A stretch of 64,000 bases of DNA from Eggerthellaceae bacterium UBA3686 (lineage in GTDB: Bacteria > Actinomycetota > Coriobacteriia > Coriobacteriales > Eggerthellaceae), in assembly GCA_002371495.1 (NCBI GenBank), contig DFIX01000019.1:30207-94206 (forward strand). Reading direction: 5' to 3'. Positions 2,848 to 31,730 of this stretch are shown here, piece after piece. Every line of letters begins with the position of its first letter. Positions within the stretch are counted from its first letter, which is position 1. The notes beneath the pieces were generated by a model that saw nothing but the letters and a program-made list of their open reading frames with translations, was not told the DNA's origin and did not search any database. The position numbers were made by a program, and so were the translations under genes.

Positions 2848-5130
2848 CTACAAATCGAAGTCGAATGCAGCACGGCCGAAGCGGGTGCGTTTCAGCTCGA
2901 GCAGATAGCCGCTCATGGCGGCATCCTGCAACCCGCTTACTGCAACGATAACCGTCTCGATATTATCAGCGTTCAGGTACCCGAAATCGGCAAGGGCTCC
3001 CATAAGGGCGCGATCGTCATGACGCGCCGTGTCAACGCAGATCTCGACTGCATGTTCGCGCAAGGTCCGCTCGAAAAGCGACCGGTTGACGCCTGTCAGC
3101 AAAATGGGGTCTTTGAAGCGCTCGACAATTAACCGAGCCTGCTCGTAGGCCGTCACGCCATCGCCTTTGCGAGCAGTGTAATCATGGGCGTTTGCCAGGC
3201 AGTTGTCGAAGTGCTTCATCATATCGGGCACGTTCACCCAACTCGACCCGCCGAGCGCCAAGCTGATCTCATGAATCGACCGGGCCGTGTCGGGAAACCT
3301 GAACTCGAAGACGGTCCTCCCCTCGAGCGGTTTTTTCAATTCGACCTTGATATGCTCGATGAAAGACCATGTAAGGAGCCCCGACGAACCGATGGTCTTG
3401 AGATTGGGCCCTAGATAAATTGACTTGATGTTACGGCAGTTGCTGAAAGCATACGATTCGATGTGCTTCACGCGCTCGGGTATGGCGACGTCTTCTACCG
3501 AATTGTCGAACAGAATCGCTCGATCGCCGTCCTCGCCCCGCTCGCACAGGATACCCGATTCAACGTAAAAGCGCGTATTAGCCGGGTCAGCAGAGATCTT
3601 CGCAATCGAGGGCGGCTCGACCAGGCGATGTGCACCTGCGGTGACAAATGCGTCGGCTCCTATGCTCTGCAGGGCAGCCGGAATGAAGAGCTCGGTCAGC
3701 GACGAGTCAATAAATGCCTCTTTGCCAATAGCCCTCAACGTCGACGGAAAGGTGACCGAGCGCAGCTTTCTGCAGACCCTGAAAGCGCTGTCGCCAATCT
3801 GCTCGACGCCTTCCGGAACCTCGACTTCCTCTATCGTTTCGTGAAATGCGAAAGCATACGATTCAACGACATGCGTCCCATCAACAATCTTGAACGCAGC
3901 GACAGTCGGATCAATCAGCTGCACGAATCGCAAGTATTCACCGTCTTGTTTGTAGAGTCCACCGTTTCCATCGTAGAAATACAGCGGGTTCTGGCTCGAT
4001 ACCGCAAACGTTGCACCTTCGCCCGTGTATACAACGTTGGTGTTCTGAACGATGCAGTTCCCTATAAAGCGCACCGAAGCAGGCACCACAATTCCTTCGA
4101 GCCCCGAACCGGCAAATGCATAGGCGGCGATACTCTCTAGGCCCGCGTTCAACGTAACGTGAGAAAGCTCCTTGCAATGAAAAAACGAGCGCTCACCAAT
4201 GGTCTTAAGCGAACATCCGCATTCGAGCCTCTTCAAGCCGGTATGCGCGAACGCGTAGTCTTCGAGCACCTCCAAAGAGTCAGGCATTACCACCTGTTCG
4301 AGTTTCAGGACGCCCATACACGCTTTCTTCGCGACCCGCTTGCATCCATTTTGAATTATCAATTTCTTGACCGGACGGGCAAGCGCTATGAGGGTCTTTC
4401 CGTCTTTTGCGTAAAGCGCATCGCCATCGCAATCGATAAATGGATTGTCAGCAGCTACCTCAATGACCTTGAGCTGTGTCTTTTCAAATGCGCCCGGGAG
4501 CACGTTCTTTACGTTTTTGCCGATGATTAGCGTCTGCAAAGAGGGATTCTCGAATACTTCGCCGGTAATCTTCTCGAGCATGCCGGGCAATACGATGGTC
4601 TTGATCTTTGGACACTGCGACAGCCACGTGGCCGAGAATTCGACGACGTCTTTCGGAAAACGGACGTACTCGAGATTCTCATTCATCCTAAAGGCGCACA
4701 GCCCGATTGTTTTAACGCTGTCAGGACATATTATTCGCCGCACCGACCCAAGCTCCGCACATGCATCAGCGCTAATAGCATACACAGGCAGGCCTTCGAT
4801 GCTGCTAGGAATCTCGAGCGTCTCTTCAGCTGTCCTGCAACGCGTGATTCTGACCATGCTTTGGTCGACGATTCTGTAAGTCCATACCGTCTTATCGCCA
4901 CAAGAATAGGTATACGGCTTTGACGAGCGCGCATATTCGAGGTCTCGCAGCCGCTTTGCTTCAGCTTGCTTGCGCTTATACTCGATTTCCATGCGTTCAA
5001 GCTGCTCTTTCGAAGCAGTCACTCCGTCCATTGCGGTCGGCGAAAAACCACCGAACGTAACAGCCAATGTTGCTATCGCAGAAACGCCATCGCCTATAGC
5101 CAAAATACCCTCGCTATAATCGTTAAGCAA
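2848..5130 (-). CDS. BspA-type leucine-rich-repeat protein with no recognisable signal peptide and a helical C-terminal domain
   Basis: 760-aa ORF with repeated ~23-aa LRR_5-like units (e.g. VEVPEGVEQIGDSAFRVCRKLRSVTFPSTLRAIGKEAF). An N-terminal coiled-coil-like stretch reads KEQLERMEIEYKRKQAEAKRL. The track start is TTG and the true start is uncertain. Sample lines are only 47-50% GC. Confidence 0.75.
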   Translation of the reverse strand: MLNDYSEGILAIGDGVSAIATLAVTFGGFSPTAMDGVTASKEQLERMEIEYKRKQAEAKRLRDLEYARSSKPYTYSCGDKTVWTYRIVDQSMVRITRCRTAEETLEIPSSIEGLPVYAISADACAELGSVRRIICPDSVKTIGLCAFRMNENLEYVRFPKDVVEFSATWLSQCPKIKTIVLPGMLEKITGEVFENPSLQTLIIGKNVKNVLPGAFEKTQLKVIEVAADNPFIDCDGDALYAKDGKTLIALARPVKKLIIQNGCKRVAKKACMGVLKLEQVVMPDSLEVLEDYAFAHTGLKRLECGCSLKTIGERSFFHCKELSHVTLNAGLESIAAYAFAGSGLEGIVVPASVRFIGNCIVQNTNVVYTGEGATFAVSSQNPLYFYDGNGGLYKQDGEYLRFVQLIDPTVAAFKIVDGTHVVESYAFAFHETIEEVEVPEGVEQIGDSAFRVCRKLRSVTFPSTLRAIGKEAFIDSSLTELFIPAALQSIGADAFVTAGAHRLVEPPSIAKISADPANTRFYVESGILCERGEDGDRAILFDNSVEDVAIPERVKHIESYAFSNCRNIKSIYLGPNLKTIGSSGLLTWSFIEHIKVELKKPLEGRTVFEFRFPDTARSIHEISLALGGSSWVNVPDMMKHFDNCLANAHDYTARKGDGVTAYEQARLIVERFKDPILLTGVNRSLFERTLREHAVEICVDTARHDDRALMGALADFGYLNADNIETVIVAVSGLQDAAMSGYLLELKRTRFGRAAFDFDL

Positions 5131-9749: not shown

Positions 9750-10078
9750 CGTGTCGTCTCCTTCTATTTAATAGCCAATGAGCATACGCTAGCTTAGGCG
9801 AAATCGAACCGATTGTCCATGCAACAAAAAAGGCCGCGATGCGACCTAATAGTCCGGTGGGGTCGAAAGCAAAGCATTCGACCCCACAAAGGACTTACTA
9901 CTATGCGCAACTTTCGTCGCATTTGCACCTTAAGGCAAGTGCTGCCTCGATCTGGCCAGATCATTTTGTGCTCGTCAGTGGATGCCCGCTACATCCGCCC
10001 CTACCAAATGGCTAGGTACCCTGACGAACAGCCAAGTGTTCCCCTATAAGCACCTGACTTGCACTCGAAATACCGAGC

Positions 10079-10333
10079 TTACGCGCCGGGGGCCTTGGGG
10101 GCGCCGGGGGCCTTGGGGGCGCCAGGAGCGCCGGGGGCCTTGGGGGCGCCAGGAGCGCCAGCTGCAGGAGCCGCGCCGGGCAGAGGCTTCTCGCCGTTCA
10201 GGTACGGGGTGAAGTCTTCCTTGCAGAACGGGCACTTGTCAAGCGTAATGCCCGCCATCATCTGGATGGGCTTCCCGCATCCAGGGCACTTCATCGGGCC
10301 GCCGCCGCCAGCATCAGATGGTCTAAAGCACAT
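10079..10333 (-). CDS. small zinc-ribbon protein with a C-terminal (A/G)PGAPK repeat tail
   Basis: 84 aa. ATG at 10333 has AAGGAGG 7 nt upstream. CPGCG...CPFC forms a four-Cys ribbon. The tail reads GAAPAAGAPGAPKAPGAPGAPKAPGAPKAPGA. Confidence 0.6.
   Translation of the reverse strand: MCFRPSDAGGGGPMKCPGCGKPIQMMAGITLDKCPFCKEDFTPYLNGEKPLPGAAPAAGAPGAPKAPGAPGAPKAPGAPKAPGA
10083..10160. repeat. imperfect 18/27-nt tandem repeat encoding the PGAPK tail
   Basis: GCGCCGGGGGCCTTGGGG occurs at 10083-10100 and 10101-10118. A 27-nt variant with a GCGCCAGGA insertion follows. Confidence 0.8.
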
Positions 10334-10568
10334 AAGATTCCTCCTTCATCGGATTTGCTCGAACGAAAAAGACATCGCTCGGGCCTTACTGCGCCACGCG
10401 CCCTGCCCCATTCCAGAGCGTTATGACTTGCTCACATTATAATCAACTTGCAACTATTTTTGCGCGGAACTTTCGCCCCTGTCGGTCAGATGAACGCCAA
10501 AGGCGCCCGAAACCATGCCTTGCTGAGGTTTCGAAGCCTCTGCCCTAGCGGCGTTTGCGCCTACTATA

Positions 10569-12786: not shown

Positions 12787-13117
12787 GATTGTCTGCCATT
12801 TGCTGTTACTGTTCGCTCTGGCCTCTCGATCGTCCGCCCAGGTCGGCGGCAGGGCGCTAGAAGATATGACCGATGATTAACCGGTCGGAGCCTCCCTTTC
12901 TGAATGTTCGTGGGTTAGGCCTACAGCTCCTAGCGTTTTTCGTAAATTAGAAGTCAGTAGCGGCGGTTGTCGGCTACGCACCCAGTCGCCGACCTGGTCT
13001 ACTGCGGCCTGAAAAGAAAACATTTGCTGAAGCAGAGCACGAATCGGCTAGCGCGTAGCGACACATTCCCTGATATACTTGGAGAGCTAAACCGCCCTAC
13101 ATACACAGAGGTCTTAT

Positions 13118-17047: not shown

Positions 17048-17158
17048 GCGAAAGCGCAGGTGGCAGCACGTGTTCGCTTGGCTTCGGCTTAACCTATATG
17101 GATTATCAGGAACAGTGCCTGCAGAATCGCTCACACATGCTGCCACCTGCGCTTTCGC
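17048..17158 (+). repeat. intergenic hairpin repeat, full copy C1 (orientation A)
   Basis: Outer arms GCGAAAGCGCAGGTGGCAGC (17048-17067) and GCTGCCACCTGCGCTTTCGC (17139-17158). Core: CGCTTGGCTTCGGCTTAACCTATATGGATTATCAGGAACAGTGCCTGCAGAATCGC. Confidence 0.9.
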
Positions 17159-17264
17159 TTGCGCTACAGTTTGGGATTAAGAACTGTGTCGGCGAGACCT
17201 CCGTTTGGTGAGGAGCTCATCGAGTTATGCGGGACAGTCACCGAATGTCCTTTCAGACAATGAA

Positions 17265-17374
17265 GCGTTTCCGCAGGCGGGGGCGTGACTCCGGCGATTC
17301 TGCAGCCACTGTTCCTGTCATTCACATAGGTTAGGCGAAGCCAAGCCGGAGCGCGCTCCCGCCTGCGGAAACGC
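17265..17374 (-). repeat. intergenic hairpin repeat, full copy C2 (orientation B)
   Basis: Arms GCGTTTCCGCAGGCGGG and CCCGCCTGCGGAAACGC. Contains GCGATTCTGCAGCCACTGTTCCTG...CATAGGTTAGGCGAAGCCAAGC, the reverse complement of the C1 core. Confidence 0.9.
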
Positions 17375-17428
17375 GGCGGGATGGCAGAAAAGAGAGTCTA
17401 GCCATAACGTCGTTTCAGGTAGAGCTTG

Positions 17429-18028
17429 CTACAGCGCTTGCTTGATGGCAGCCAGCAGATCGTCGAACTCCTCGAATGCCGCAAGCTCGGGGTGCTCGGC
17501 GCGAATGGCGTCGGTGCTGCGGAACAGGAAGCCTGCCTTCGACGCCAGGATCATGCCCAGATCGTTGTGGCTGTCGCCTGCGGCGATGGTTTCGAATCCC
17601 ATAGCCTGCAGCCCCTTGACCGTCGTGAGCTTCGACTGCTCGCAGCGCATATGGTAGCCGGTAATCGTGCCGTCATCGGCAACTTCGAGCGAGTTGCAGA
17701 ACAACGTCGGCCAGCCGAGCTTCTTCATGAGCGGCTGCGCGAACTGCTCGAAGGTGTCGGAAAGGATGATGGCCTGCGTAGTGGCGCGCAGCTCGTCGAG
17801 GAACTCGCGAGCGCCCGGCAACGGGTCGATCGTCGCGATGACTTCCTGAATCTGCGGAAGACCCAAGCCGTGTTCGTGCAGAATGCCCAGGCGAAACTTC
17901 ATCAGCTTGTCGTAATCGGGCTCGTCGCGCGTCGTGCGCCGCAGCTCGGGTATGCCCGTGGCCTCGGAAAAGGCTATCCAAATCTCGGGTACCAACACGC
18001 CTTCCATATCGAGACACACGATGTTCAC
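17429..18028 (-). CDS. thrH: phosphoserine phosphatase / homoserine phosphotransferase (HAD family, ThrH type)
   Basis: MNIVCLDMEGVLVPEIWIAFSEATGI...ILSDTF...AAGDSHND is closely collinear with Pseudomonas ThrH as I remember it. Confidence 0.8.
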   Translation of the reverse strand: MNIVCLDMEGVLVPEIWIAFSEATGIPELRRTTRDEPDYDKLMKFRLGILHEHGLGLPQIQEVIATIDPLPGAREFLDELRATTQAIILSDTFEQFAQPLMKKLGWPTLFCNSLEVADDGTITGYHMRCEQSKLTTVKGLQAMGFETIAAGDSHNDLGMILASKAGFLFRSTDAIRAEHPELAAFEEFDDLLAAIKQAL

Positions 18029-18157
18029 GACTACCTCCTTCTACGGTGCTTTCCTTACGCATAGATTACAATATTGACGTGGCTGCTGCCACGAATTTAA
18101 CCTTGCCTTTGCAAATACGATTTTGCGGATAACCTCCGCAAGCAGAACGGAGCGACC

Positions 18158-18577
18158 ATGTACGGATTGCAGACCGAAGCAGCATTTGATTCCGCCCATT
18201 TCCTCACCGATTACTACGGCAAGTGCGAGAACCTCCACGGTCACCGCTGGCGCGTCGTCGTCGACCTCGCGCAACCCGAGCTTCAGACCGAGGGAACCAT
18301 GAAAGACATGGTGCTCGATTTCGGCGTCTTCAAGAAGGCCGTGCGGGCAGAAGCAGACCTCCTCGACCACACTTTCCTCGTTGAAGAGGGCTCTCTTAAA
18401 CCCGAGACGATCGCCTGCCTTGAATCCGAGGGTTTTAGCCTGACGGTGCTGCCTTTCCGCACCACGGCCGAAAACCTCGCCCGCTACCTCTTCGACCGCT
18501 TGACCGACCAAGGGTTGCCCATCGCTCAGGTCGAAGTTGACGAAACCCCCAACAACCGCGCCTTTTACCGCGCATAA
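18158..18577 (+). CDS. queD: 6-carboxy-5,6,7,8-tetrahydropterin synthase
   Basis: 139 aa. AAFDSAHFLTDYYGKCENLHGHRWRV contains the PTPS/QueD Cys and His-x-His zinc motif. Confidence 0.85.
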   Translation: MYGLQTEAAFDSAHFLTDYYGKCENLHGHRWRVVVDLAQPELQTEGTMKDMVLDFGVFKKAVRAEADLLDHTFLVEEGSLKPETIACLESEGFSLTVLPFRTTAENLARYLFDRLTDQGLPIAQVEVDETPNNRAFYRA

Positions 18578-18583
18578 GGGCTC

Positions 18584-18619
18584 AGCCAAGCCAAAGCGCG
18601 CCGCTGTCTGCGGAAACGC
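18584..18619 (-). repeat. truncated copy (one end only) of the hairpin repeat
   Basis: AGCCAAGCCAAAGCGCGCCGCTGTCTGCGGAAACGC matches the right end of orientation-B copies. It begins 7 nt after the queD stop. Confidence 0.7.
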
Positions 18620-18682
18620 AACGGGAAACAGCAATGATTACCTCGACGCCCAGACGCAGGGATCGGCGCCGCTTCCAAACCC

Positions 18683-19603
18683 TTACGCGAGCTCGACGTA
18701 GTCGGTTTTCTTGGCAGCTATGCGGACGTTGACTTCCTGGTTCTTCAGCGAGACACGGCTGTGGGGCGGCACGGATTCGGTCAAGAAGGCGCTGCCGGCG
18801 ATGACCGACCCCTCCCCTACGACCGTATCGCCGCCGAGCACGCAGGCGTTGGCGTAGATGGTGACCTTGTCCTCGATGGTCGGGTGGCGACGCACACCGG
18901 CCAGACGCTGTCCTCCGCGCGTCGAGAGGGCGCCCAACGTCACACCCTGGTAAATCTTTACGTAGTTGCCGATCTTGGTGGTTTCGCCGATGACGACGCC
19001 GGTTGCGTGGTCGATGAAGAAATACTCGCCGATTTCGGCGCCTGCATTGATGTCGACGCCGGTACGGCTGTGGGCGTACTCGGTCATGATGCGCGGAATC
19101 AGCGGAACGTCGAGCTGGTACAGCTCGTGCGCGATTCGGTACACCCAGATGGCGAAAAAGCCCGGATACGAGTAGATGACCTCTTCCTTCGACTGCGCCG
19201 CAGGGTCGCCGTCGAATGCAGCCTGAATGTCTTTGTGGAGCATCTTCTGAATGGCGGGCAACTTGCACATCATCTTTTCGCAGACCTCGCGCGAGCGCTC
19301 TTCGATGGCCTCCGCGTCGACTGAACCCCCGTCGCGGAAGCTGAACGCAAGGCAGACCTGCGAGTAGAGCTTCTCTTCGACCTGCAGCACCGTGTTGCCG
19401 ATAAAGTACTTGGCATCGACCGACGTCTGCGCGCCATCGGTGAAATAGCCCGGGAACATGATATTTCGGACGTCCTTCAGGATGGCAATGATGGCGTTGC
19501 GGCTTGGCATGCGGCGCTCAGGCGTCGTGAAGAAGATCTCGTCGCTCGATTCGTACATGCCCTTGATCTCGTCGATGATGTCGTGCAGATCGCATTTTTT
19601 CAT
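18683..19603 (-). CDS. cysE: serine O-acetyltransferase
   Basis: Hexapeptide-repeat core GVDINAGAEIGEYFFIDHATGVVIGETTKIGNYVKIYQGVTLG. Start ATG 19603 is preceded by GAGGTG (track ORF to 19624). Confidence 0.85.
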   Translation of the reverse strand: MKKCDLHDIIDEIKGMYESSDEIFFTTPERRMPSRNAIIAILKDVRNIMFPGYFTDGAQTSVDAKYFIGNTVLQVEEKLYSQVCLAFSFRDGGSVDAEAIEERSREVCEKMMCKLPAIQKMLHKDIQAAFDGDPAAQSKEEVIYSYPGFFAIWVYRIAHELYQLDVPLIPRIMTEYAHSRTGVDINAGAEIGEYFFIDHATGVVIGETTKIGNYVKIYQGVTLGALSTRGGQRLAGVRRHPTIEDKVTIYANACVLGGDTVVGEGSVIAGSAFLTESVPPHSRVSLKNQEVNVRIAAKKTDYVELA

Positions 19604-19659
19604 TGGTGCACCTCGCGGCTTCAATCGGGGCCCGAGTCGTGTCGGGCGCGGCTGACCGG

Positions 19660-21207
19660 TTATTTCATGCCCATTATCGTACGCACGAGCACGTTGTAGC
19701 GCGTAGAAGGCTCTTTCGGCATCTGACTATCGGGTCGAGCGCACACGCTTGCCCTGCTTGCTATGGTTATGGCGGGCGGAGCCTGGATGCGCTTGAAGGA
19801 CGCGCGCGAAATCGACCCCGCGACCCACTGCAGATCGGCTAAAAACGCCTGCGGATCATCGAGGCCGTAGTAGCCTACCCACGGACCGGCCTCGGTGTCG
19901 GCAAGTCGCGTGTCTAGGTAGTTCTGCATGATGTCGCAGCATGCCGCATCGAGGCTGCGCGGGCGCAAAAGCCCATCGCCCAGCAAGCGCGACACGAGCC
20001 AGTCGTGGTAGAACCATTTCATGGGATCGCGTTGCCCGTTCGCGAGCTCAGCCGAGGGGGGCGTTTCCCATACAAGACCGCGTTCGGTCTGCGTTGGCAA
20101 GAGGTTGCTGGGCACGACTTCGGACCCGGTTCGCTCGTTTACGCGACGCGCCAGGTCAAAGAGCTGCACTTTCGTCAAATCGCCTATGGGCGCCAGAGCA
20201 CCGATGGCATCGCCGTACAGCGTTGCATAGCCGAGCGCGCACTCCACGCGGTTTCCGTTGTTCACAACCACGCCGTTTTCGATAGCGGCAAAGGTAGAAA
20301 GCAGGTTTCCGCGAGTGCGGGCCTGCACGTTCTCGAGGATGACGCCCTTCAGGACATCGGTCCCATAGCCGTACTGCAGAAGCGTGTTGCCGAGCGAGAC
20401 AACCAAATCCTCGATGACGCCGTTGCGCAGCGCAATGCCGAGCGCGCTCGCGAGCTGGGCGGCATTCGATTTCGTGGCTTCGGAATTGTAGCGCGTAGCC
20501 ATGTTATAGCCAACAACACGCTCGGGACCCAGGGCAAGGGACAAAAGGCTGGCGGTGATGCTGCTGTCCAGGCCGCCCGAGAGCCCGACGATCCATTTGG
20601 GGCCGAATGGCAGCACGTACGCATCGAAGCGCCTGATCGTCTGCACGAGGCACTCGAGAAGCTTTTCTCCCGGTGGCAGTGTTTGCGCCGCAGGCTCTGA
20701 TTCGGGTGCAGCCGAGAAGTCGACGAGCCGGAATTCCTCTTGGAAGTCGTCGCGCAAACGCATGGTCACCTGCCCGGCGCCGTCGACGACCGAGGAGCCC
20801 CCGTCGAATGCGAGCACCTTCTTGCCCTCCTCGCGCATACCGACGGGCCGCACGACGATGCTGCGCGCCGGCAGCATTCGCTCGTCGGGCATGACCGTAT
20901 ACGGCCGTAAGTCGGCGACGATGCTGAAGTCGCAGCCTTCGCACGCACGCCCGATGCCGATGCGGTACGTCTCGCCGCAAGCATCAAGCACCACCACGTT
21001 GCCGGCAACGTCGATGCGCGAGTCGTTAAGCCCGATAATGCGCACGTCGGACTCGTCGGTCAGCGAGTTGGGCACGACGAGGGCATCGGCCGAGACGTCG
21101 AGCGCGCGCTCGACCATACGGTCGCATGCGGCTTCGTTTCGCGAGGGCTGGCCCTCGACAATTTCGACTTGACCGATGCCGATCTTCAATTTGGAAAGGT
21201 CGCCCAT
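19660..21207 (-). CDS. nadE: NAD+ synthase with a shortened N-terminal CN-hydrolase-like domain
   Basis: PP-loop motif GLSGGLDSS and a conserved synthetase core. The N-terminal ~190 aa resemble a truncated glutaminase domain. Confidence 0.85.
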   Translation of the reverse strand: MGDLSKLKIGIGQVEIVEGQPSRNEAACDRMVERALDVSADALVVPNSLTDESDVRIIGLNDSRIDVAGNVVVLDACGETYRIGIGRACEGCDFSIVADLRPYTVMPDERMLPARSIVVRPVGMREEGKKVLAFDGGSSVVDGAGQVTMRLRDDFQEEFRLVDFSAAPESEPAAQTLPPGEKLLECLVQTIRRFDAYVLPFGPKWIVGLSGGLDSSITASLLSLALGPERVVGYNMATRYNSEATKSNAAQLASALGIALRNGVIEDLVVSLGNTLLQYGYGTDVLKGVILENVQARTRGNLLSTFAAIENGVVVNNGNRVECALGYATLYGDAIGALAPIGDLTKVQLFDLARRVNERTGSEVVPSNLLPTQTERGLVWETPPSAELANGQRDPMKWFYHDWLVSRLLGDGLLRPRSLDAACCDIMQNYLDTRLADTEAGPWVGYYGLDDPQAFLADLQWVAGSISRASFKRIQAPPAITIASRASVCARPDSQMPKEPSTRYNVLVRTIMGMK

Positions 21208-22749
21208 CTAGCGCCTCCTGCCGCTCTGGAACTTCAGGCGCTGAGTCACGTACTCGCGAACGAGCAGGATCAGCAAGATGCTCATGACAATCAGATAGCC
21301 CACCACGGCACCCTCGAGCTTCATCATCGTGGTCATGAGGATGAGCACCAGAAGCGAGAACCCGAACGTGATGAGGTACAAGCCCAGCACCACCTGCTGG
21401 CGGCGCAGGATCGTTATGACCTGGTAGAGGAAGTCGATTGCCGCAGTCACGCCGCCGGCAGCGAGCATGATAAACGACAGCTGCTTCATAGGTGCAAAGT
21501 CAAGGCCGTACATGAAGCTCATAATGGGAATGCCGACCCAGTTCATGAACAGTATGCCGACGACCGTGATGCCCACGATGAGCACCATCATGGCTATGAT
21601 CACCATGTCGAAGCGCGCGCGGCGCGACTCGTCCGCCCAAACGTTCGCGAGTTTGACGAGCAGGGGCTTGTAGATCATCCCGACTGTGATGAGAATCGCC
21701 TGCGCCGGGAAGTACAGCGCGTTGAAATAAAGCTGGTTATCGTAGGGCAACGAAGCACCCTGCATGACGAACTTGGGCATGTTGTCGACGAGCGCGTACA
21801 GGAAAAGCGCCGCGAATACGGGAAAGCATTCCGTGAACAGGAGCTTGACCGAGAGCATGTTGGGCGCCGACGAGCGCGGGGTCTCGAACATGGTCAGCGG
21901 GAACGTTGCGAACGCAAGCGTGCATGCGGCGGCGATCGCCATGGCGACGGCCGCTATGCCCAAATCGCCGGTGATGAGCAATGCGACCGTGAAGAGCAGA
22001 AACGCCGCGACCGAGCGCAACGTCAACGAGATGCCGCCTAAATAGAGCTTGTCGACCTGCTGCAAACGGCCCTCGTACACCTCGCCGAGCGCATCGATGG
22101 CCTTGAACGTGAACACGCCCATGCTCATGACGAACATCTCGCCCGTATAGCCCAGGGCATTGCAGATAACGAGCCCGATAAGCAGCATCACAAGGCACGT
22201 GGCCGCACGGTTTATTTGGTAGTCGGCAAACGAATGGTACTCGTCGAGGTCCGATACCTGGTACGTGCGCACGCCGTAGCTCGCCAGTATGTAGAGCAGG
22301 TTGGCGATGACGAAGGCGAACGAGAACATGCCGGCTCGCTCGACGCCGGCCAGCCACGTGACGACGATGGTCAGAAACGGGAAAACCATGCCCCATGCCG
22401 CGAACCCGATGGTGTTCCATACGAAATCGCGCGACGTACGGCCCGATGCATACTCCTCGTCCTGTCCGGCCAAGTTGCCTTCCGACACAGCGCCGACGAG
22501 CCGGTCGAACCAGTCGTTTATGAACTTGCGGACCGGGTTCTGCTTGCGCGGGCGGTCGGCGAACACCGATTCGCGAACCTCTTCCTCGGCTTGGACGGCG
22601 CCCCGCATCGAACGGCCGCGGTCGTGCACGCTTCCGCTGTCGCGCACCGTGGCGTCGGCCATCTGGTAGCGCGAAGACGACCGAGTGCGTACGGCACCGC
22701 GATGCGCGGCGTTCGCATCGGTTCTGCTTTTCCTTACTTCCCTTGCCAT
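21208..22749 (-). CDS. polytopic membrane protein, MOP/Wzx-like oligosaccharide flippase family; N-terminal basic extension, start uncertain
   Basis: About 12-14 hydrophobic segments. The stop abuts the nadE start (21207/21208). The first ~90 aa are Arg-rich and may be upstream of the true start. Confidence 0.55.
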   Translation of the reverse strand: MAREVRKSRTDANAAHRGAVRTRSSSRYQMADATVRDSGSVHDRGRSMRGAVQAEEEVRESVFADRPRKQNPVRKFINDWFDRLVGAVSEGNLAGQDEEYASGRTSRDFVWNTIGFAAWGMVFPFLTIVVTWLAGVERAGMFSFAFVIANLLYILASYGVRTYQVSDLDEYHSFADYQINRAATCLVMLLIGLVICNALGYTGEMFVMSMGVFTFKAIDALGEVYEGRLQQVDKLYLGGISLTLRSVAAFLLFTVALLITGDLGIAAVAMAIAAACTLAFATFPLTMFETPRSSAPNMLSVKLLFTECFPVFAALFLYALVDNMPKFVMQGASLPYDNQLYFNALYFPAQAILITVGMIYKPLLVKLANVWADESRRARFDMVIIAMMVLIVGITVVGILFMNWVGIPIMSFMYGLDFAPMKQLSFIMLAAGGVTAAIDFLYQVITILRRQQVVLGLYLITFGFSLLVLILMTTMMKLEGAVVGYLIVMSILLILLVREYVTQRLKFQSGRRR

Positions 22750-22767
22750 TCGATCGGATGCGCCCTG

Positions 22768-23193
22768 CTATTCGGCCTCGAGCAGCTCGATCTCGAACGT
22801 CAGGTCCTTACCTGCCAGCTCGTGGTTCATGTCGAAGGTGATGGTCTCGTCGTCTTTGGCCACGACCACGCAGGGCACGGGACGCCCATCGGGGGTCGCA
22901 AGGACGGGGTGCTGGCCGACCTTCAGCTTCTCGGAGCCCGGTAGAGCCTCGAATTGCATCTTGATGATCATCTTTGGGTCGACTTCGCCATAAGCCTCTG
23001 CGGCGGGGATGACCACCGTGATGGTCTGGCCGACCTCCATGTCGCGCACGGCGTTGTCGAAGCCTGGAATCATCTGGCCGCCCATGCAGGTAAACGCAAG
23101 CGGCTCGCCGCGGTCGCGCGACGAGTCGAACTTTGTCCCATCGGCCAGCGTGCCGACGTAATGCACCTTGACCTTCTTGCCTTCGTTGCTCAT
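22768..23193 (-). CDS. FKBP-type peptidyl-prolyl isomerase, SlyD-like (second copy)
   Basis: KVKVHYVGTLADGTKFDSSRDRGEPLAF...MIPGFDNAV...FDMNHELAGKDLTFEIELLEAE. Confidence 0.85.
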   Translation of the reverse strand: MSNEGKKVKVHYVGTLADGTKFDSSRDRGEPLAFTCMGGQMIPGFDNAVRDMEVGQTITVVIPAAEAYGEVDPKMIIKMQFEALPGSEKLKVGQHPVLATPDGRPVPCVVVAKDDETITFDMNHELAGKDLTFEIELLEAE

Positions 23194-23291
23194 GAAAGCT
23201 CCTCGTGTTTCGAAAACCGATTAGTTCGAAGCAAAAGTCTACTACACCCCAGCAGCCAAGACCCGATTCTTAATGAAAAGCACCAATGCAA

Positions 23292-23324
23292 AGCGAGCAC
23301 TTCGCCCTGGGCGAAGTGCTCGCT
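23292..23324 (-). terminator. 15-bp stem hairpin downstream of the ACT-domain gene
   Basis: AGCGAGCACTTCGCC-CTG-GGCGAAGTGCTCGCT. On the minus strand it is followed by TTGCATT. Confidence 0.5.
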
Positions 23325-23428
23325 CGCTTGATTGCCTTGCATGAACGCTTTTTCCTCGAACAACAGGGGCGCTCAAATGTATGGCGACGAGCTACACTCC
23401 CACCGCCATACAAACGTCGCATCCGAGG

Positions 23429-23857
23429 TTAGGCGATGTCTTCCTGCTTGAGCAGCTTGAAGCCTGCCTCCTCGATGGCCTTGGCAGCCGCGGAAGCCTC
23501 TTCGGCACCGCTGATCTTCAGCACATCGCAGGCCATATCGCCGTTTATCGAGAAGCAGTAGCCGTACTCGATGTTCTGATCCAGCTCGTCGAGCGTGGCG
23601 AGCAGGCGCGCCAAGCCGCCCGGCTCGTTGGGCACGCCGATGGCAGCCACTTTCGTCGAGATGGCACGGTAGTCGGCCGCGTTCAGCACGTCGAGTGCGC
23701 GCGCCGGGTCGTCGCAGATGATGCGCACGACGCCGTAGTCGGTCGTGTCGGCGATCACGAGCGATTTCATGTTGATGTTCGCCCATGCGAGCGTGCGGCA
23801 CAGCGCCGCCAGGCGGCCTTCGGAATTCTCGAGGAATACGGTAATCTGATCAATCAT
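23429..23857 (-). CDS. ACT-domain protein
   Basis: 142 aa with two ACT-like halves (ITVFLENSEGRLAALCRTL... and VAAIGVPNEPGGLARLLATL...). Immediately downstream of the PaaK-like ligase, a frequent pairing. Confidence 0.75.
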   Translation of the reverse strand: MIDQITVFLENSEGRLAALCRTLAWANINMKSLVIADTTDYGVVRIICDDPARALDVLNAADYRAISTKVAAIGVPNEPGGLARLLATLDELDQNIEYGYCFSINGDMACDVLKISGAEEASAAAKAIEEAGFKLLKQEDIA

Positions 23858-23858
23858 G

Positions 23859-25166
23859 CTAGTTCACTCCTTCGCGCAGGTCGATGACGCGCTTGGCCTT
23901 GCCTTCCGAGCGCGGAATCGACTTCGGCTCGACGATCCTGACCTTGATGCCGACGGACAACGCCGCTTTGAGCTTGGCCTCGAGCGCTTTCTGCAGGCCT
24001 TCAATCTGACGGATCTCGTCGAAGTCGAAGCCCTGTTCCATTTCGACTTTCAGCGTGACGCGGTCGAGGTGGGCGACCGTCGTGAGCTCGACCTGGTACC
24101 AGCTCGACAGCTCGGGCATCGTCTTCATGACGTCCTCGATCTGCGACGGGAAGACGTTGACGCCGCGGATGATGAGCATGTCGTCGGTGCGGCCGTGCAG
24201 GCGGTCGATGCGCCTGTGCGTGCGCCCGCAAGCACACTCGCCGGGGATGATGCGCGTGATGTCGCGCGTGCGGTAGCGCACCACGGGCGTCGCCTCGCGG
24301 TCGGTCGTGGTCAGCACGAGCTCGCCCCACTCGCCGTCGGGCAGCACTTCTCCGGTCTCGGGATCGATGATCTCGGCGAAGAAATGGTCCTCGGCCAGGT
24401 GAAGGCCGTTCTGCTCCATGCACTCGATTGCCACGCCCGGGCCCATCGTCTCGGTCAGGCCGTACACGTCGAGCACCTTGTAGCTGAGCTTTTTCTCGAG
24501 GTCGGCGCGGAAATTGTCGCTGAATGCCTCGGCGCCGTGAATGCCGACGCGCAGCTTGAAGTCCTTGGCCGGATCGAGCCCCATGGCGATGGCCGTATCG
24601 GCGATGTGCATGGCATATGACGGTGTGCAGCACAGGATGGTCGAGCCCATCTCGCGCAGGATGCGGATCTGGCGCTCGGTATTGCCCGCGCTCATGGGAA
24701 TGGTGGTGCATCCGGCCGAAACGCCGCCGTAATGGGCGCCCAAGCCGCCGGTGAACAGGCCGTAGCCATAGCACACATGCATGATGTCATCTTCGCCGCC
24801 GTCGGCGTACTCAACGCCACGCGCAAAGCAATCGCCCCAAATCTCGAGGTCATGCTCGGTGTATCCGCCCACGGTAGCCACACCGGTCGTGCCGGACGAC
24901 ATATGGATCTCACGCACGTCCTTCATCGGCACGGCGAACATCTTAAACGGATAGTTATCGCGCAGGTCCTGCTTGGTAGTAAACGGAGCCTTGGCAATAT
25001 CGGCGAGGGTTTCAACGGAATACGGATCGAAACCGGCTTCGTCAAAGCGCTCTTTGTAAAACGGTACGTTCTCGTAGCAAGTGACGAGTGTCTTCTTGAC
25101 CCCCTCGAACTGAAGCGCTTCGATCTGGTCATGAGGCAACGTCAGAATGTCCTTCTTTTCGGTCAT
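23859..25166 (-). CDS. paaK: phenylacetate-CoA ligase family (PaaK / coenzyme F390 synthetase-like)
   Basis: PFYKERFDEAGFDP...TKQDLRDNYPF...IHMSSGTTG. ATG 25166 is preceded by AAAGGTG (track ORF to 25181). Confidence 0.85.
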   Translation of the reverse strand: MTEKKDILTLPHDQIEALQFEGVKKTLVTCYENVPFYKERFDEAGFDPYSVETLADIAKAPFTTKQDLRDNYPFKMFAVPMKDVREIHMSSGTTGVATVGGYTEHDLEIWGDCFARGVEYADGGEDDIMHVCYGYGLFTGGLGAHYGGVSAGCTTIPMSAGNTERQIRILREMGSTILCCTPSYAMHIADTAIAMGLDPAKDFKLRVGIHGAEAFSDNFRADLEKKLSYKVLDVYGLTETMGPGVAIECMEQNGLHLAEDHFFAEIIDPETGEVLPDGEWGELVLTTTDREATPVVRYRTRDITRIIPGECACGRTHRRIDRLHGRTDDMLIIRGVNVFPSQIEDVMKTMPELSSWYQVELTTVAHLDRVTLKVEMEQGFDFDEIRQIEGLQKALEAKLKAALSVGIKVRIVEPKSIPRSEGKAKRVIDLREGVN

Positions 25167-25400
25167 CCGCACACCTTTCATGATTGCCCAGGGCGCGTAC
25201 TACCCTGGTTCCACAATTTACGCGAGGCGTATCATACCTCAGAAAACAAACCGCTCCAACGTGGTAAAGCGATTGTTAACGACATTTAGCATTATTTATT
25301 GGTGTTTATCATCGTAATTCAAATAACTCCAGCGCAAAACGAGCCACAGGAGTACCCATGGCTCGTTCCTTCACTCAGTGCACGTTATTTGAGCGTTTCC

Positions 25401-26360
25401 CTACTGCTGCTCCTCAGCTTGCGGCTGCACGGCGGGAGCGTCGGTCACAACTTCCTTCAGCGCGGCGGCGACGCCGGCGAGGCCCTGCATATCGGAAGGG
25501 ATGATGAGCTTGGTGGCCTGCCCACGCGACACTTCCTTCAGGGCTTCGAACGACTGCAGGGTCAGAACCGCGTTGTCCGCGCCGGCCTCTCGCACCATGC
25601 GGATGCCGTCGGCGGTCGCCTGCTGGACGTTGCGAATTGCTTCAGCCTCGCCTTGAGCGTCGAGGATCTGGCGCTGCTTCTCGGCTTCGGCTGCCAGAAT
25701 GACCGTCTGCTTGCGCGCCTCGGCAGCCAGAATCTGGGCCTGCTTGTTGCCCTCGGCGATGGTGATGGCGCTCTGCTTCTGGCCTTCGGCGAGCAGGACC
25801 GCCTCGCGCTTCTCGCGCTCGGCCTTCATCTGCTTTTCCATCGCTTCCTGAATCTGACGCGGCGGGGTGATGTTCTTGACCTCGACGCGATTGACCTTTA
25901 TGCCCCATGCGTCCGTCGCCTCGTCGAGGATCGAGCGCATTTGGGCGTTGATGGTATCGCGGCTGACGAGCGTCGTGTCGAGGTCCATGTCGCCGATGAT
26001 GTTGCGCAGCGTCGTGGCGGTCAGGTTCTCGATGGCCATGATGGGATTCTCGACGCCGTAGCAGTACAGGCGCGGATCCATGACTTTGTAGAAGATGACC
26101 GAGTCGATCGACATCGTGACGTTGTCCTTGGTGATGACGGGCTGCGGCGGGAAATCAGCAACCTGTTCCTTCAACGAGATGTGCGCACGGATGTGGTCGA
26201 TGAAGGGTACTTTCACGTGAAGGCCGTTGCCCCAGGTGGTCAGGTATGACCCAAGGCGCTCGACAACCATGGTTTCGGCCTGCGGAACTATTTTGATGCA
26301 CGAGAGGCATACGAACACGACTATGGCGATGACAACGATGATGGGTACGAGTGCAAACAT
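25401..26360 (-). CDS. SPFH/band-7 (stomatin-like) protein
   Basis: N-terminal TM segment, then IKIVPQAETMVVERLG...; coiled-coil A/E/Q-rich C-terminus. AGGAGG lies upstream of the ATG. Confidence 0.9.
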   Translation of the reverse strand: MFALVPIIVVIAIVVFVCLSCIKIVPQAETMVVERLGSYLTTWGNGLHVKVPFIDHIRAHISLKEQVADFPPQPVITKDNVTMSIDSVIFYKVMDPRLYCYGVENPIMAIENLTATTLRNIIGDMDLDTTLVSRDTINAQMRSILDEATDAWGIKVNRVEVKNITPPRQIQEAMEKQMKAEREKREAVLLAEGQKQSAITIAEGNKQAQILAAEARKQTVILAAEAEKQRQILDAQGEAEAIRNVQQATADGIRMVREAGADNAVLTLQSFEALKEVSRGQATKLIIPSDMQGLAGVAAALKEVVTDAPAVQPQAEEQQ

Positions 26361-26416
26361 GAAAACCTCCTATCGGCTGCTTTTGGCGGTATTGGCGACT
26401 TGCCGACGCGCGGGCC

Positions 26417-26860
26417 TTACACGCGCTCGACGACGAGCTTGATCGATTTCTGGTCGACGACGCGCACCTGCGCGCCCGACGGTATGGCCGAGCCATCCGC
26501 AGAAAGCGCCGTCCAAGTAACGCGGTCGGGTGTCTCGACACGCCCGGTCATAGCTTCGGGGTCAATCGGCTCGACGACCACGGCGGTCGTGCCGATGAAC
26601 GTCTGCTCGTGCGACTCGCCATGTTTGCGGTACTTCAGCACGACGGGCCTCAGCAGCGCCAGGCTTGCGAGCGACACAACCAGAAACGCCACGAGCTGCA
26701 CGACCATCGAGCCGCCGAAGAAGCCGATGAAGAACGCGACGATGCCCCCGATGACGAACCAGACGGTTATCAGGCTCACCGACACCGCCTCGATGACTGC
26801 CGCGACGACGGCGACTATCAGCCAAATGTAAGGGCTTGCGAAAACCGAGCCGATGTCCAT
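26417..26860 (-). CDS. NfeD-family membrane protein
   Basis: Three hydrophobic segments, then an OB-like C-terminus (GTTAVVVEPIDPEAMTGRVETPDRVTWTALSADG...VRVVD). ATG 26860 is preceded by AAAGGAGG. Classic NfeD-SPFH pair. Confidence 0.8.
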   Translation of the reverse strand: MDIGSVFASPYIWLIVAVVAAVIEAVSVSLITVWFVIGGIVAFFIGFFGGSMVVQLVAFLVVSLASLALLRPVVLKYRKHGESHEQTFIGTTAVVVEPIDPEAMTGRVETPDRVTWTALSADGSAIPSGAQVRVVDQKSIKLVVERV

Positions 26861-27029
26861 GCGTCCTCCTTTCTTTCCCCACGAGTATAGCAAACCCCGC
26901 ACCTGCCCGCCTCATCGTCCTGCCCGATGTTGTGCGTTTGTAATTACGCTCGCACCAAGCTGTTTGCGTCCCGTCGCAGTTGCGCATGATATAGCCTCGA
27001 TGAATTGAGTCCCAACCGCCCAATCCCAC

Positions 27030-27072
27030 CGCGTTTCTGATGGTGGGGGCGCGCTCCGGCTTGGCTTCGCCT
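27030..27072 (+). repeat. truncated left half of the hairpin repeat
   Basis: GCGTTTCTGATGGTGGGGGCGCGCTCCGGCTTGGCTTCGCCT aligns with the left half of copy C5. Confidence 0.7.
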
Positions 27073-27174
27073 ACGGAGACGCGATGGGACGGATCGACAA
27101 GACGATGAACGGCAAACTCTAGGGTATGATACGGAACATAAAGTATCTGGGCAGCAAACGCGCGAGGTGACGTC

Positions 27175-27975
27175 ATGGGCGACAACGATCAGCAGCCGAA
27201 CCAAACGGCAGAGCGCATTACGTACACGACTCCTGCGGGCATCGAGGTCGAGGTGCCGATTTACCGCGCAGGCATGCCCGAGGTATTCGTGGCGCTACAG
27301 CCTCCTTCGGCGCAACCCTACATCATGGCTGCACGCGACATGCCCGTAAACGACATCATCCAGTTCTTCGGCCCGCGCGTTCACGTCGTCGAAGAACTGC
27401 GCACCGACATGCTCAAGCGCTATTCCAAAGGATCGTACGGCAAATGCCGCTACCAAACAGGCGACGTCGCCTACGTCATGGGACGTCCCTTCCAACTGCG
27501 CGTGTACCCGCTCGGCGAGCGCAAACTGAAGAGTTCGGCGCGCGGTCGCGCCACCGCCAAGTTCTCGCTTGCAGCCGATGTCAGCCTGATCACCCTCTAC
27601 GTCGTACACCCAAAAAACTACGACGAGGCGAAACTCGCCTTCAACGGCTATGCCGAACAGGTGCTGTTGCGCAACGCAACGGGCCTCGTGCGCGATTTCA
27701 GCGCCGTGGCCATGCCCGGGATCACTCCGCCTACCGTGCGGATGCGCGCGATGCGCGGACGCTGGTCAAGCAACGAAGCCGGGGCGCTCTGGCTCTCGAC
27801 CGACCTGATCCCATACCCACCCGACTGCCTCGTGTACACGATCATGTTGGAGCTGCGTAAGATCAAGACAATAAGCGACGAGGAGTTCCAAGCGTACTTC
27901 GAACGCGTGCTACCCGGATGGAAAGCAGCGGCGCAAATGCTTACCGAACGCGCCGAGCCCTACAGTCTGCAATAA
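27175..27975 (+). CDS. YgjP/DUF45-like protein with a degenerate metalloprotease motif
   Basis: VRMRAMRGRWSSN aligns with the family block IRxMKxRWGSC. DCLVYTIMLELRKIKTISDEEFQAYFERVLPGWK aligns with DYVxVHELxHLxxxNHSxxFWxxVxxxxPDYK. Both His of HExxH are absent. Confidence 0.65.
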   Translation: MGDNDQQPNQTAERITYTTPAGIEVEVPIYRAGMPEVFVALQPPSAQPYIMAARDMPVNDIIQFFGPRVHVVEELRTDMLKRYSKGSYGKCRYQTGDVAYVMGRPFQLRVYPLGERKLKSSARGRATAKFSLAADVSLITLYVVHPKNYDEAKLAFNGYAEQVLLRNATGLVRDFSAVAMPGITPPTVRMRAMRGRWSSNEAGALWLSTDLIPYPPDCLVYTIMLELRKIKTISDEEFQAYFERVLPGWKAAAQMLTERAEPYSLQ

Positions 27976-28012
27976 TAGCCCTAGACCCAGCACATGCCGA
28001 GAGGGAGAATCT

Positions 28013-28804
28013 ATGTCCAAGCATACGTTCACGTTCATGGGCTCGGGCGCCGGTTGCGGCGTGCCGGCCTTCTTCTGCGATTGCCCCGCTTGCAAGGAAG
28101 CACGCGAAAACCCGCGCGCTCGCCGCGGTGACTGCGGCGTCATGGTCAGCGGCACGACCCGCACGCTCATCGACACCCCGCCCGATATCCGCCAGTACTT
28201 CATTCGCGAGAACGTGAGTCATATCGATAATCTGATCTTCACGCATTGGCACTACGATCACGTAGGCGGCCTCGGCGAGCTTGAATACATGGTGCAACTG
28301 CTAACAAAGACGCAGCTTCCGACCTACGCGAGCCCCTATACGCTGGCAAGCATCGGCAAGGAATTCGAATACATGATGTATTGCCTGGCCACACAGGAAT
28401 GGAACCCGTTCGAAGAGCTCGAGCTGGACGGCGTGAAGTACACGGCCCTGCCCGTCACCCACGCCCCGGGAACGTACGGTTACCTGATCGAGACCGGCGA
28501 AACGAGCCTGTTCTACGCCTCCGACACCGGCAAGCTCCCGCCCGAGACGGCTGAACGCGTGCGCGGCGTCGACATCTTGGCCATGGACGCGACGTACTGG
28601 AAGGAAAACGGCTACCCGCAGTCACATCATTCGGTCCAGGAGACGATCGAGGAAGGGCTCGAACTCGACGCCGGCAAGATTTACTTGACGCATATGTGCA
28701 TGCACTACTCCGAGCCCATCACGCTCGCCGAGCTCGAAGACTACCTGGAGCAGTACGACGGCCGCGTCGAACCGGCCGCCGACGGCTTGTCGTTCGAAAT
28801 CTAG
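28013..28804 (+). CDS. MBL-fold metallo-hydrolase, PhnP-like
   Basis: N-terminal Cys cluster CGVPAFFCDCPAC and metallo-beta-lactamase motif THWHYDHVGG. Confidence 0.8.
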   Translation: MSKHTFTFMGSGAGCGVPAFFCDCPACKEARENPRARRGDCGVMVSGTTRTLIDTPPDIRQYFIRENVSHIDNLIFTHWHYDHVGGLGELEYMVQLLTKTQLPTYASPYTLASIGKEFEYMMYCLATQEWNPFEELELDGVKYTALPVTHAPGTYGYLIETGETSLFYASDTGKLPPETAERVRGVDILAMDATYWKENGYPQSHHSVQETIEEGLELDAGKIYLTHMCMHYSEPITLAELEDYLEQYDGRVEPAADGLSFEI

Positions 28805-28833
28805 GGCATTTCGAGCTGTTTAACCGTCCCACC

Positions 28834-28942
28834 GCGTTCCCGCAGGCGGGGCGCGCTCCGGCTTGGCTTCGGCTAAACCTATATGTATCGCAGGAACAGT
28901 GCCTGCAGAATCGCCGGAGTCACGCCCCGCCTGCGGAAACGC
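28834..28942 (+). repeat. hairpin repeat, full copy C5 (orientation A)
   Basis: Arms GCGTTCCCGCAGGCGGGG and CCCCGCCTGCGGAAACGC. Core: GCTTGGCTTCGGCTAAACCTATATGTATCGCAGGAACAGTGCCTGCAGAATCGC. Confidence 0.9.
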
Positions 28943-29042
28943 TTCGATGACTCGGGATGGCAATTCGAGTCGCTTTCCCCAAATTGGGACAACATAGCGA
29001 AAGCAATAAGCGACAGTCGAGTTGGCGCCCTGGGTTAACGAA

Positions 29043-29154
29043 GCGTTTCCGCTGGTGGGGGCGTGACTCCGGCGATTCTGCAGGCACAAACTTCCTAAAT
29101 ACGCTTAGGTTTAGCCGAAGCCAAGCCGGAGCGCGCCCCCACCAGCGGAAACGC
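29043..29154 (-). repeat. hairpin repeat, full copy C6 (orientation B)
   Basis: Arms GCGTTTCCGCTGGTGGGGG and CCCCCACCAGCGGAAACGC. Core present in reverse orientation. Confidence 0.9.
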
Positions 29155-31664: not shown

Positions 31665-31699
31665 TTGCAAGACAGATTGGCCAAGACGACCGTGACGGC

Positions 31700-31720: not shown

Positions 31721-31730
31721 GCATCGCGCA

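Follow-up and report, generated by a model that had tools for sequence, protein, structure and literature searches.

A family of hairpin mobile repeats with a conserved internal bubble, apparently undescribed, from gut Eggerthellaceae

We describe a family of hairpin repeats of about 110 bases from gut Eggerthellaceae that apparently has not been described before and that behaves as a transposable element, because copies in other genomes are flanked by 8–9-bp target duplications and because close relatives have empty sites at positions where a copy is found. The two halves of each copy form one long imperfect palindrome, the arms of which vary from copy to copy yet stay complementary to each other, and in the middle of which two short boxes, BoxL GCTTGGCTTCG and BoxR CTGCAGAATCGC, are nearly invariant and do not pair over their whole length. 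The explanation that we consider probable is that of a MITE-like transposable element, non-autonomous and restricted to Eggerthellaceae, whose arms are kept complementary by concerted evolution at the DNA level.

Copies in the window and the structure of the hairpin

The window, by which we mean the whole stretch of 64 kb that was analysed, holds nine full copies, seven of about 110 nt and two of 180 nt, in addition to fragments and members of a related second family (Table 1). These had been listed in a first-pass annotation, and they were borne out both by reading of the sequence and by a covariance-model scan; the model, for which seven of the copies had been aligned, gave 118–141 bits for those seven and 85–88 bits for the 180-nt variants. 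The two short fragments in that list are real, each consisting of a left arm plus BoxL, and the stretch at 42523–42632, which had been counted as a full copy, is instead composed of tandem solo right arms with GGGACG after each. The core consensus that had been given for all copies, …AACCTATATG…CAGGAACAGTG…, applies to some of them, but the copy at 42194 and the 180-nt variants have another apex; the two hairpins that had been called a subfamily belong to a second family, which is related but has different boxes. Exact BoxL matches at positions 513 and 6480 lie inside coding sequence, have no arms and were set aside as chance occurrences.

Table 1. Hairpin repeats and associated features in the window; strand + means BoxL GCTTGGCTTCG followed by BoxR CTGCAGAATCGC
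Position	Feature	Strand	Remarks
17048-17158	full copy, 111 nt	+	arms 26-28 nt, start GCGAAAGCGCAGGTGGCAGC; BoxL 17076-17086; BoxR 17119-17130
17265-17374	full copy, 110 nt	-	arms GCGTTTCCGCAGGCGGG
18584-18619	truncated copy	-	left arm and degraded BoxL
27030-27072	truncated copy	+	left arm and exact BoxL (27059-27069); divergent genes on either side
28834-28942	full copy	+	30 nt past the stop of the Lactamase_B gene
28943-29042	spacer, 100 nt		between converging copies; itself an imperfect palindrome, DNA fold z = -3.4
29043-29154	full copy	-	downstream of the EF-G-like gene and of that gene's own terminator hairpin
31558-31664	full single copy	+	between peptidase C1 and EF-G-like genes; BoxR with one change, CTGCAGAATCTC
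35772-35951	180-nt variant	-	repeat unit 35755-35975; 88-nt module in place of the apex, holding a bidirectional terminator-like hairpin
36541-36676	second-family copy	-	terminator-like hairpin at the apex
42194-42303	full copy	+	different apex, TTAACTTTTGAATGTTTGAAAGCTTGTAG; covarying pair CGCTT/GTAGC
42412-42522	full copy	-	converging with 42194-42303
42523-42632	tandem solo arms	-	CGTCCC before each arm on this strand; not a full copy
46878-46979	second-family member	+	arms CCCGGCTCAACGG; boxes GCTAGGCCTTCAG… / …GCTGCGCAAGCGGC
48257-48436	second 180-nt variant	-	93% identical to 35755-35975

All window copies are intergenic and lie amid housekeeping genes, the neighbours encoding an ELP3-like radical-SAM protein, a HAD hydrolase, a metallo-beta-lactamase-fold protein, an EF-G paralogue, peptidase C1, Mrp/ParA, EPSP synthase, purine nucleoside phosphorylase, NrdD/NrdG and thioredoxin reductase. 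The EF-G paralogue has a best identity of at most 93% in the protein collection, and of about 75% when the comparison is with named genera (Xiamenia and Rubneribacter, for example), which makes the host an uncultured lineage of Eggerthellaceae. Three pairs of copies are arranged head-in (-> <-) with spacers of 100–108 nt; that of the 17048–17158 and 17265–17374 pair measures 106 nt, that of the 42194–42303 and 42412–42522 pair measures 108 nt and is partly palindromic, and two of the three spacers are palindromic to some extent.

BoxL and BoxR stand opposite one another and form an asymmetric bubble within the long hairpin. G1 and C2 of BoxL pair with G11 and C12 of BoxR, TTGG of BoxL faces AATC of BoxR in a 4x4 internal loop, and above this loop CT pairs with AG, followed by a T·C mismatch, a C-G pair and one or two bulged BoxR bases; beyond the bulge come a short helix of arbitrary sequence and a variable apex. 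A 2x2 TC/TC loop usually follows beneath the boxes, and under it the basal stem begins, which measures from 16 to more than 70 bp. In every true copy the arms match at 16–71 positions, the arm sequence not being conserved across subfamilies, and each window copy folds with z = -5 to -8.5 relative to shuffled sequences. At least four types of apex occur with identical boxes: a short, AT-rich one; GCGAAA-(perfect hairpin)-TTTCTTG, which resembles a bidirectional intrinsic terminator and in which the hairpin sequence varies with its pairing kept; CACCCATG…; and an 88-nt module containing AAAACGAGCC-ACCG-GGCTCGTTTT, which the window and a distant MAG share at about 97% identity. Readings of the boxes as a promoter, an IHF site, a hairpin ribozyme or a kink-turn were considered by eye and gave no fit.

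BoxL is intact in all nine full window copies and BoxR in eight of the nine, the exception being the copy at 31558, which makes one change in 207 box positions. The invariance of the boxes in loci fetched from other genomes is partly built in, since the scan demanded exact boxes, and the unbiased evidence consists of the nine window copies, a few additional copies found with models, and the very fact that the window's boxes led to armed hairpins in at least 14 further species. Two rare box variants, both with compensating changes, were found with a second model: at L042 2098–2231 the G1-C12 pair has become C-G, and at L019 7414–7542 one base has been gained in both strands of the loop. Although they lie between homogenising stems, the boxes have remained non-complementary and almost free of change, and this argues for purifying selection on the asymmetry itself.

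Arms in other genomes and the origin of their complementarity

We scanned one genome per species with the pattern GCTTGGCTTCG-N25-55-CTGCAGAATC and obtained at least 72 loci. Among the matches listed, at least 50 loci from at least 14 Eggerthellaceae/Coriobacteriia assemblies have long complementary arms without exception, and 22 matches lie in unrelated phyla, none of which has arms (22/22), in keeping with the 10 or so chance matches to be expected by our own estimate. The carriers are MAGs of ruminant, mouse and other samples, and Adlercreutzia sp. ZJ304. Elements are 99–220 nt long and non-coding, with no ORF, and one MAG has at least 25 loci. The arms in other genomes are unlike those of the window and often unlike each other, yet they are complementary within each copy, and across species only BoxL and BoxR are common in sequence. 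The view of the first-pass annotation, that of hairpins whose non-palindromic core is fixed and whose stems co-vary, is supported, the pattern being far more marked than the window alone could show.

Within a single MAG, a subfamily has common terminal repeats, GTTRCTGCCCAYGG…. In the MAG with the longest arms, these are perfect over 53–71 bp and unique within about 0.6 Mb of loci; their inner 20 nt or so (CGGGGAGAGGGGATTCGG) are common to the copies, and the outer 30–60 nt are copy-specific and perfectly palindromic. Identical-protein look-ups aimed at strain-level empty sites led to contigs that all end inside the repeats, and the repeat is of practical concern in that it breaks metagenome assemblies of gut Eggerthellaceae. 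The statement that no named family could be recognised agrees with our searches: Rfam 15 had no match to the whole window at the gathering score, gave only spurious miRNA-precursor hairpins at E <= 10 and had no match to the 180-nt variant; collections of phages, plasmids and IMG/VR gave no match, or chance matches without arms; and a search of the literature by sequence and by taxon plus repeat terms found no description, which does not prove absence.

The pairing of the arms was then evaluated in alignments. With seven copies, both-sided changes are present in 17 of 36 pairs and one-sided changes in none of the basal-stem pairs, a few cells being mismatched or gapped; together with the folding z scores above, this bears out the complementarity of the arms. 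With 45 forward-strand copies, standard pairs fill 94.8% of cells, compared with 67.0 ± 0.7% after shuffling and 39–49% when the partner is slid by 1–3 columns; double changes are found in all 21 basal-stem pairs, mostly with all four Watson-Crick types, and the covariation score is 0.64 vs 0.15. The signal thus grows, and does not shrink, when more copies are included, a point on which the first-pass annotation had said its proposal could fail. The helix just apical to the boxes covaries as well (GGC/GCC, GGGC/GCCC, GGAC/GTCC, GAGC/GCTC, GACC/GGTC and GCGC/GCGC).

Another way in which it could have failed is that the copies are recent duplicates of a few progenitors, their complementarity being simply inherited. 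L014 and L040 contain an orthologous copy, with the same two genes on each side and flanks that are 84–87% identical, and of the differences between their arms, five substitutions and one indel are mirrored, vs three or four changes that are not. Since these mirrored changes have arisen after the species split, arm complementarity is not merely a legacy of few progenitors.

Complementarity of this kind could be maintained in RNA, and we weighed the possibility that the repeat is a cis-acting structured RNA, the hairpin of which would present the BoxL/BoxR loop to an RNA-binding protein or an RNase and would serve as an insulator, stabiliser, processing site or terminator module, with its stems under compensatory selection at the RNA level and its mobility incidental. 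This possibility, which we regard as rather unlikely, is in accord with the strictly intergenic location of the copies, many of which lie just past stop codons and between convergent genes, and with helices broken by fixed non-canonical loops, which are typical of protein-binding RNA motifs. In tandem-gene contexts, 20 copies are in sense and 8 in antisense orientation (crude gene calls; binomial p ~0.04 by our own calculation), an excess that hints at some transcript-level effect. Also in its favour, the boxes are kept in the orthologous L014/L040 copies with arms and apex diverged by 25–50%, but this retention is subject to the ascertainment mentioned above. Terminator-like hairpins in some subfamilies likewise speak for it; these are limited to certain apical inserts and a few copies, such as that of L023, which ends in a T-run, and the window copies are followed by TTGCG or TTCG with no T-run and do not qualify as intrinsic terminators.

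The same terminator-like hairpins speak against a structured RNA in several subfamilies, where they lie between the boxes and would end transcripts coming from either side before the second arm, thus truncating them ahead of BoxR. Nor do the mismatches point to RNA: in the arms, the forward strand has 32 of the G·T type and the reverse strand 42, with another 23 of the transversion type, so that most are transitions and there is no strand bias; nor does G·U exceed other non-pairs in the 45-copy alignment, or A·C on either strand. When forward and reverse folding energies were compared for the core or the apex, the arms being left aside, neither strand was consistently favoured. About 10 of roughly 50 copies sit between divergent genes, perfect stems of 50–70 bp far exceed what an RNA needs and would be substrates of RNase III, and the lack of a genuine Rfam match extends to E <= 10.

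On the basis of the absence of wobble bias on either strand, the internal terminators and the perfect arms of 53–71 bp, the complementarity of the stems is better explained by a process at the DNA level than by selection on RNA. During replication, intramolecular template switching is an established route by which imperfect inverted repeats that lie close together become more perfect (quasipalindrome mutagenesis). Template switching, or regeneration of one arm from the other, would produce mirrored changes, and mirrored indels too, without selection. The earlier proposal of selection on a hairpin presenting a specific core accordingly stands as to the fixed core and the co-varying stems, but is not supported as to selection in RNA. 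If this is true, the family is also a warning that strong covariation alone does not mean RNA function when the pairing partners form a DNA palindrome. Long hairpins and built-in terminators between core genes could alter operon expression.

Mobility and the mode of transposition

Target duplications of 8–9 bp are clear in at least eight copies from three assemblies (CAMOTA, JAFRGA and JAFRJC), with matches of 8/8 in L013, 9/9 in L014, 8/9 in L008, 7/8 in each of L061, L066, L005 and L025, and 10/12 in L040. Copies of the GTTRCTGCCCAYGG subfamily, which belongs to one MAG, have direct repeats immediately next to the palindrome, namely CCCGATTG (8/8), GATAGCAT / GATGGCAT (7/8), ACCACGCG / GCCACGCG (7/8) and AACACGGC / AGCACGGC (8/9 as a 9-mer). 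The alignment extended the duplication of L014 to CATCTGAAG (9/9) and that of its orthologue L040 to 10/12, and the duplications of L005 and L014 lie 5–9 nt outside the palindrome. The background per offset is 5e-5 for 8/8 and 5.6e-4 for at least 7/8, and a symmetric-offset scan of all copies found at least 7/8 in 17% of copies vs 2% of controls and added L005 and L025 to the list; three of the ten symmetric-offset matches (L002, L041 and one offset of L040) were left out because of GC-rich palindromic arms or inconsistent offsets.

Empty sites were found by comparison of gene order. Two genes of the window are 9 nt apart at the position where L014 and L040 carry a copy; in L082, whose EF-G is 92% identical, the EF-G gene directly adjoins the Lactamase_B gene, whereas in the window 456 nt with two copies lie between them; and L094, a 93% relative, has the same gene order without the copy at 31558. 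The intergenic DNA at these sites is too diverged for boundaries to be placed exact to the base. The first-pass annotation had called the repeat the opposite of a classical MITE, a view that does not hold for copies elsewhere, which have target duplications, termini that are common within a subfamily (GTTRCTGCCCAYGG) and empty sites in relatives.

Because the duplications flank the outermost ends of the palindrome, it is the whole element, one long imperfect palindrome, that would be inserted as a unit into intergenic DNA. The same location bears on another reading, in which only a central module of about 55–100 nt is mobile and targets the centres of palindromes that are already in place, for instance terminators or other repeats, the outer arms being host sequence. 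Copies that share the inner part of their arms and have unique outer parts, as in the MAG with the longest arms, would suit such a module, as would copies ending in a terminator-like T-run (L023). We rejected insertion into pre-existing hairpins and hold this reading to be most improbable, for the duplications of L013, L061, L008, L066 and L005 are at the outermost palindrome ends, the empty sites of relatives are free of any hairpin, and no module-free versions of the arms were found in our searches.

In the transposable element that we favour, the mobilising enzyme would be supplied in trans, and the 8–9-bp target duplications point to a DDE-type transposase making staggered cuts. The constraint on sequence would be limited to the 23-nt asymmetric module of BoxL opposite BoxR; in a folded strand or an extruded cruciform, the boxes would form short helices with the fixed 4x4 loop, the T·C mismatch and the bulge of 1–2 nt, and this bubble may be the recognition site for the mobilising enzyme or for a host protein. 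The stems would be free of sequence information and would drift fast, their complementarity being kept by concerted evolution of the inverted arms, perhaps through template switching or gene conversion inside the palindrome, or because one arm is made anew from the other at transposition.

The termini differ between copies each of which has duplications, which is odd for a DDE transposase that recognises termini. Also counting against the explanation that we favour are the nine window copies, which show no clear target duplication, and the duplications of L005 and L014, which lie outside the palindrome.

We also considered, with little confidence, a more specific mode, in which the enzyme would read only the 23-nt bubble and cut at the base of any palindrome around it, one arm being re-copied by fold-back synthesis at each transposition. 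If true, it would explain at once the unique perfect arms of 50–70 bp, the unconserved termini and the 8–9-bp duplications, and such bubble-guided, structure-guided transposition would be a mode not described for bacterial elements.

With regard to a source of the enzyme, no transposase is encoded in the 64-kb window, and about 0.5 Mb of related loci yielded no autonomous element with matching ends, no recurrent protein, no boxes that stand alone or far apart, and no long unit bounded by BoxL and BoxR. The partner that had been suggested is of RAYT/IS200 type, and the corresponding reading is a REPIN-like single-stranded DNA hairpin moved by a Y1 (HUH) transposase that reads the structure and the bubble. 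Its attractions are the architecture of a hairpin with variable, structure-preserving segments, as in REPINs (PMC3337134), the converging pairs and tandem solo arms, which recall REP clusters, and the window copies, which share short asymmetric flanks (5' CGTCCC and 3' TT(G/C)) and of which none of the nine has an evident clear target duplication. Genes of the PF01797 Y1_Tnp family, of 283–309 aa, are moreover common in related Eggerthellaceae metagenome contigs, and one lies just upstream of EF-G in L082, near the position corresponding to 31558 of the window.

The Y1_Tnp genes in L082 and L085–L093 are flanked by another REP-like hairpin, CCCCGCGGGAAATCGGTTTCCCGCGGGG, and those loci hold no box element; conversely, there is no Y1 gene in the window or in loci L001–L072, and CCCCGCGGGAAATCGGTTTCCCGCGGGG is absent from the window. 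The element ends are unconserved, unlike those of REPs. Transposition of the IS200/RAYT type is not known to make target duplications, and 8–9-bp duplications are present in at least eight copies of the box element. Because of these duplications and of the different repeat beside the Y1 genes, a RAYT mechanism is unlikely for the box elements, the suggested partner has to be given up for them, and we judge the REPIN-like reading as a whole to be very improbable. An exact BoxR 12-mer within the L082 Y1_Tnp gene is not conserved in homologues and was dismissed as a chance match.

Comparison with known systems

Like attC sites of integrons, which are recognised as folded single strands, conserve structure over sequence and depend on extrahelical or unpaired bases, the box element combines a variable sequence with a constant fold. 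In attC, the basal R''/R' boxes are conserved, the apex varies, and sites stand in one orientation in cassette arrays beside an integrase, none of which applies to the box element: its basal stem is variable, and its copies occur in both orientations, scattered among housekeeping genes with no integrase. ERIC/IRU sequences of enterobacteria are likewise imperfect intergenic palindromes, of about 127 bp, that are conserved across genera and occupy different positions in different species. ERIC is conserved over its whole length, and in the box element only 23 nt are conserved; the sequences of the two are unrelated.

REPINs and the REP-RAYT system (Bertels & Rainey; PMC3337134) resemble the box element in their hairpin doublets, their copy-specific segment that preserves the hairpin, their inverted pairs and their clusters, and it has been suggested that they work as hairpins of single-stranded DNA or RNA. 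Although the spacer of a REPIN is different in each copy, it folds in all of them (PMC3337134). REPINs have conserved REP motifs at both ends and a variable hairpin at the apex, whereas the box element has internal boxes that are not one motif used twice; its ends lack conserved REPs, the RAYT-like genes of its relatives are not flanked by it, and target duplications accompany copies in other genomes.

The closest resemblance is to MITEs (Correia/CREE, RUP, MITEAba12), which are small, non-coding, multi-copy and intergenic, with terminal inverted repeats, and which share with the box element insertion polymorphism between related genomes and subfamilies with common termini; 8–9-bp duplications, another feature of MITEs, are clear in at least eight copies of the box element from three assemblies and evident in none of the nine window copies. 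The box element is short, non-coding and multi-copy, has terminal inverted repeats and shows insertion polymorphism, and a cognate autonomous IS with matching ends was found neither in the window nor in the 0.5 Mb or so of related loci. It is unlike MITEs in having arms that are perfect over more than 50 bp and no known parent IS. In classical MITEs, the terminal repeats recognised by the transposase are conserved and the interior decays, whereas in the box element the termini are wholly different from one genome to another and often from copy to copy, and a non-palindromic middle of 23 nt is conserved. It is thus a MITE-like palindromic repeat, atypical in which part is conserved, and works most like a MITE. 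If the explanation that we favour is true, the logic of small transposons is reversed here, the ends varying freely and an internal non-palindromic bubble carrying the specificity, and the family would be a natural test case both for the recognition of folded DNA by an enzyme and for the concerted evolution of close inverted repeats.

Module and solo-arm array within the element family

The two 180-nt variants of the box element (the intergenic hairpin repeat with conserved BoxL and BoxR and variable, complementary arms) carry at their apex an 88-nt module adjoining BoxR. The window's version of this module and its counterpart in a distant MAG share about 97% identity, with the arms around them differing completely. 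Within the module there is a perfect, bidirectional terminator-like hairpin; a search of Rfam gave no match to the module. Solo right arms of the element are also found in a tandem array, each of them followed by GGGACG, and this array, which adjoins the full copy at 42412-42522, looks like the product of slippage or of partial duplication.

Repeat features in the window and in related contigs
Feature	Location	Details
88-nt module	window 35800-35885, 48285-48370; L066 (MAG) 4222-4308	adjoins BoxR
Solo right-arm tandem array	window 42523-42632	period 38/72 nt
Second hairpin family	window 46878-46979, 36541-36676, 12797-12860	boxes GCTAGGCCTTCAGCTGCTCGCG … GCTGCGCAAGCGGCTACGC
Terminator-like hairpin	window 31692-31722, 33135-33165, 48215-48245	recurrent; AAAGGGGTCTGACCCCTTT
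9-nt-period tandem repeat	window 10083-10172	GCGCCGGGGGCCTTGGGGGC…; inside ORF 10059-10442
225-nt internal repeat	window 54347-54571, 55940-56164	81% identity; inside 1880-aa ORF 53342-58984
RAYT-like PF01797 Y1 transposase genes	L082 2464-3393; L085-L093	283-309 aa; related Eggerthellaceae contigs

Consequence for metagenome assemblies

Four short-read contigs of the same strain (L073 and L076-L078), identical or nearly identical to window 17347-28869, have their ends within elements, and the repeats therefore fragment metagenome assemblies.

Other repeats and a REP-like system in relatives

The second hairpin family resembles the box element in architecture and differs from it in its boxes; among its three sites in the window, one copy bears an apical terminator-like hairpin and one other is a fragment. 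Terminator-like hairpins of the recurrent type lie downstream of several window genes. In a relative, about 900 nt of intergenic DNA 3' of the EF-G gene (L081, 6040-6960) consists of other nested palindromic repeats. Hairpin repeats seem to be unusually abundant in these Eggerthellaceae genomes. Within coding frames, the 9-nt tandem repeat would, if translated, give a Gly/Pro-rich, collagen-like stretch.

Each of the RAYT-like genes, including the one upstream of the EF-G gene in L082, is flanked by a REP-like hairpin, CCCCGCGGGAAATCGGTTTCCCGCGGGG, and the genes and this hairpin together are a REP/RAYT system of Eggerthellaceae that is distinct and probably undescribed.
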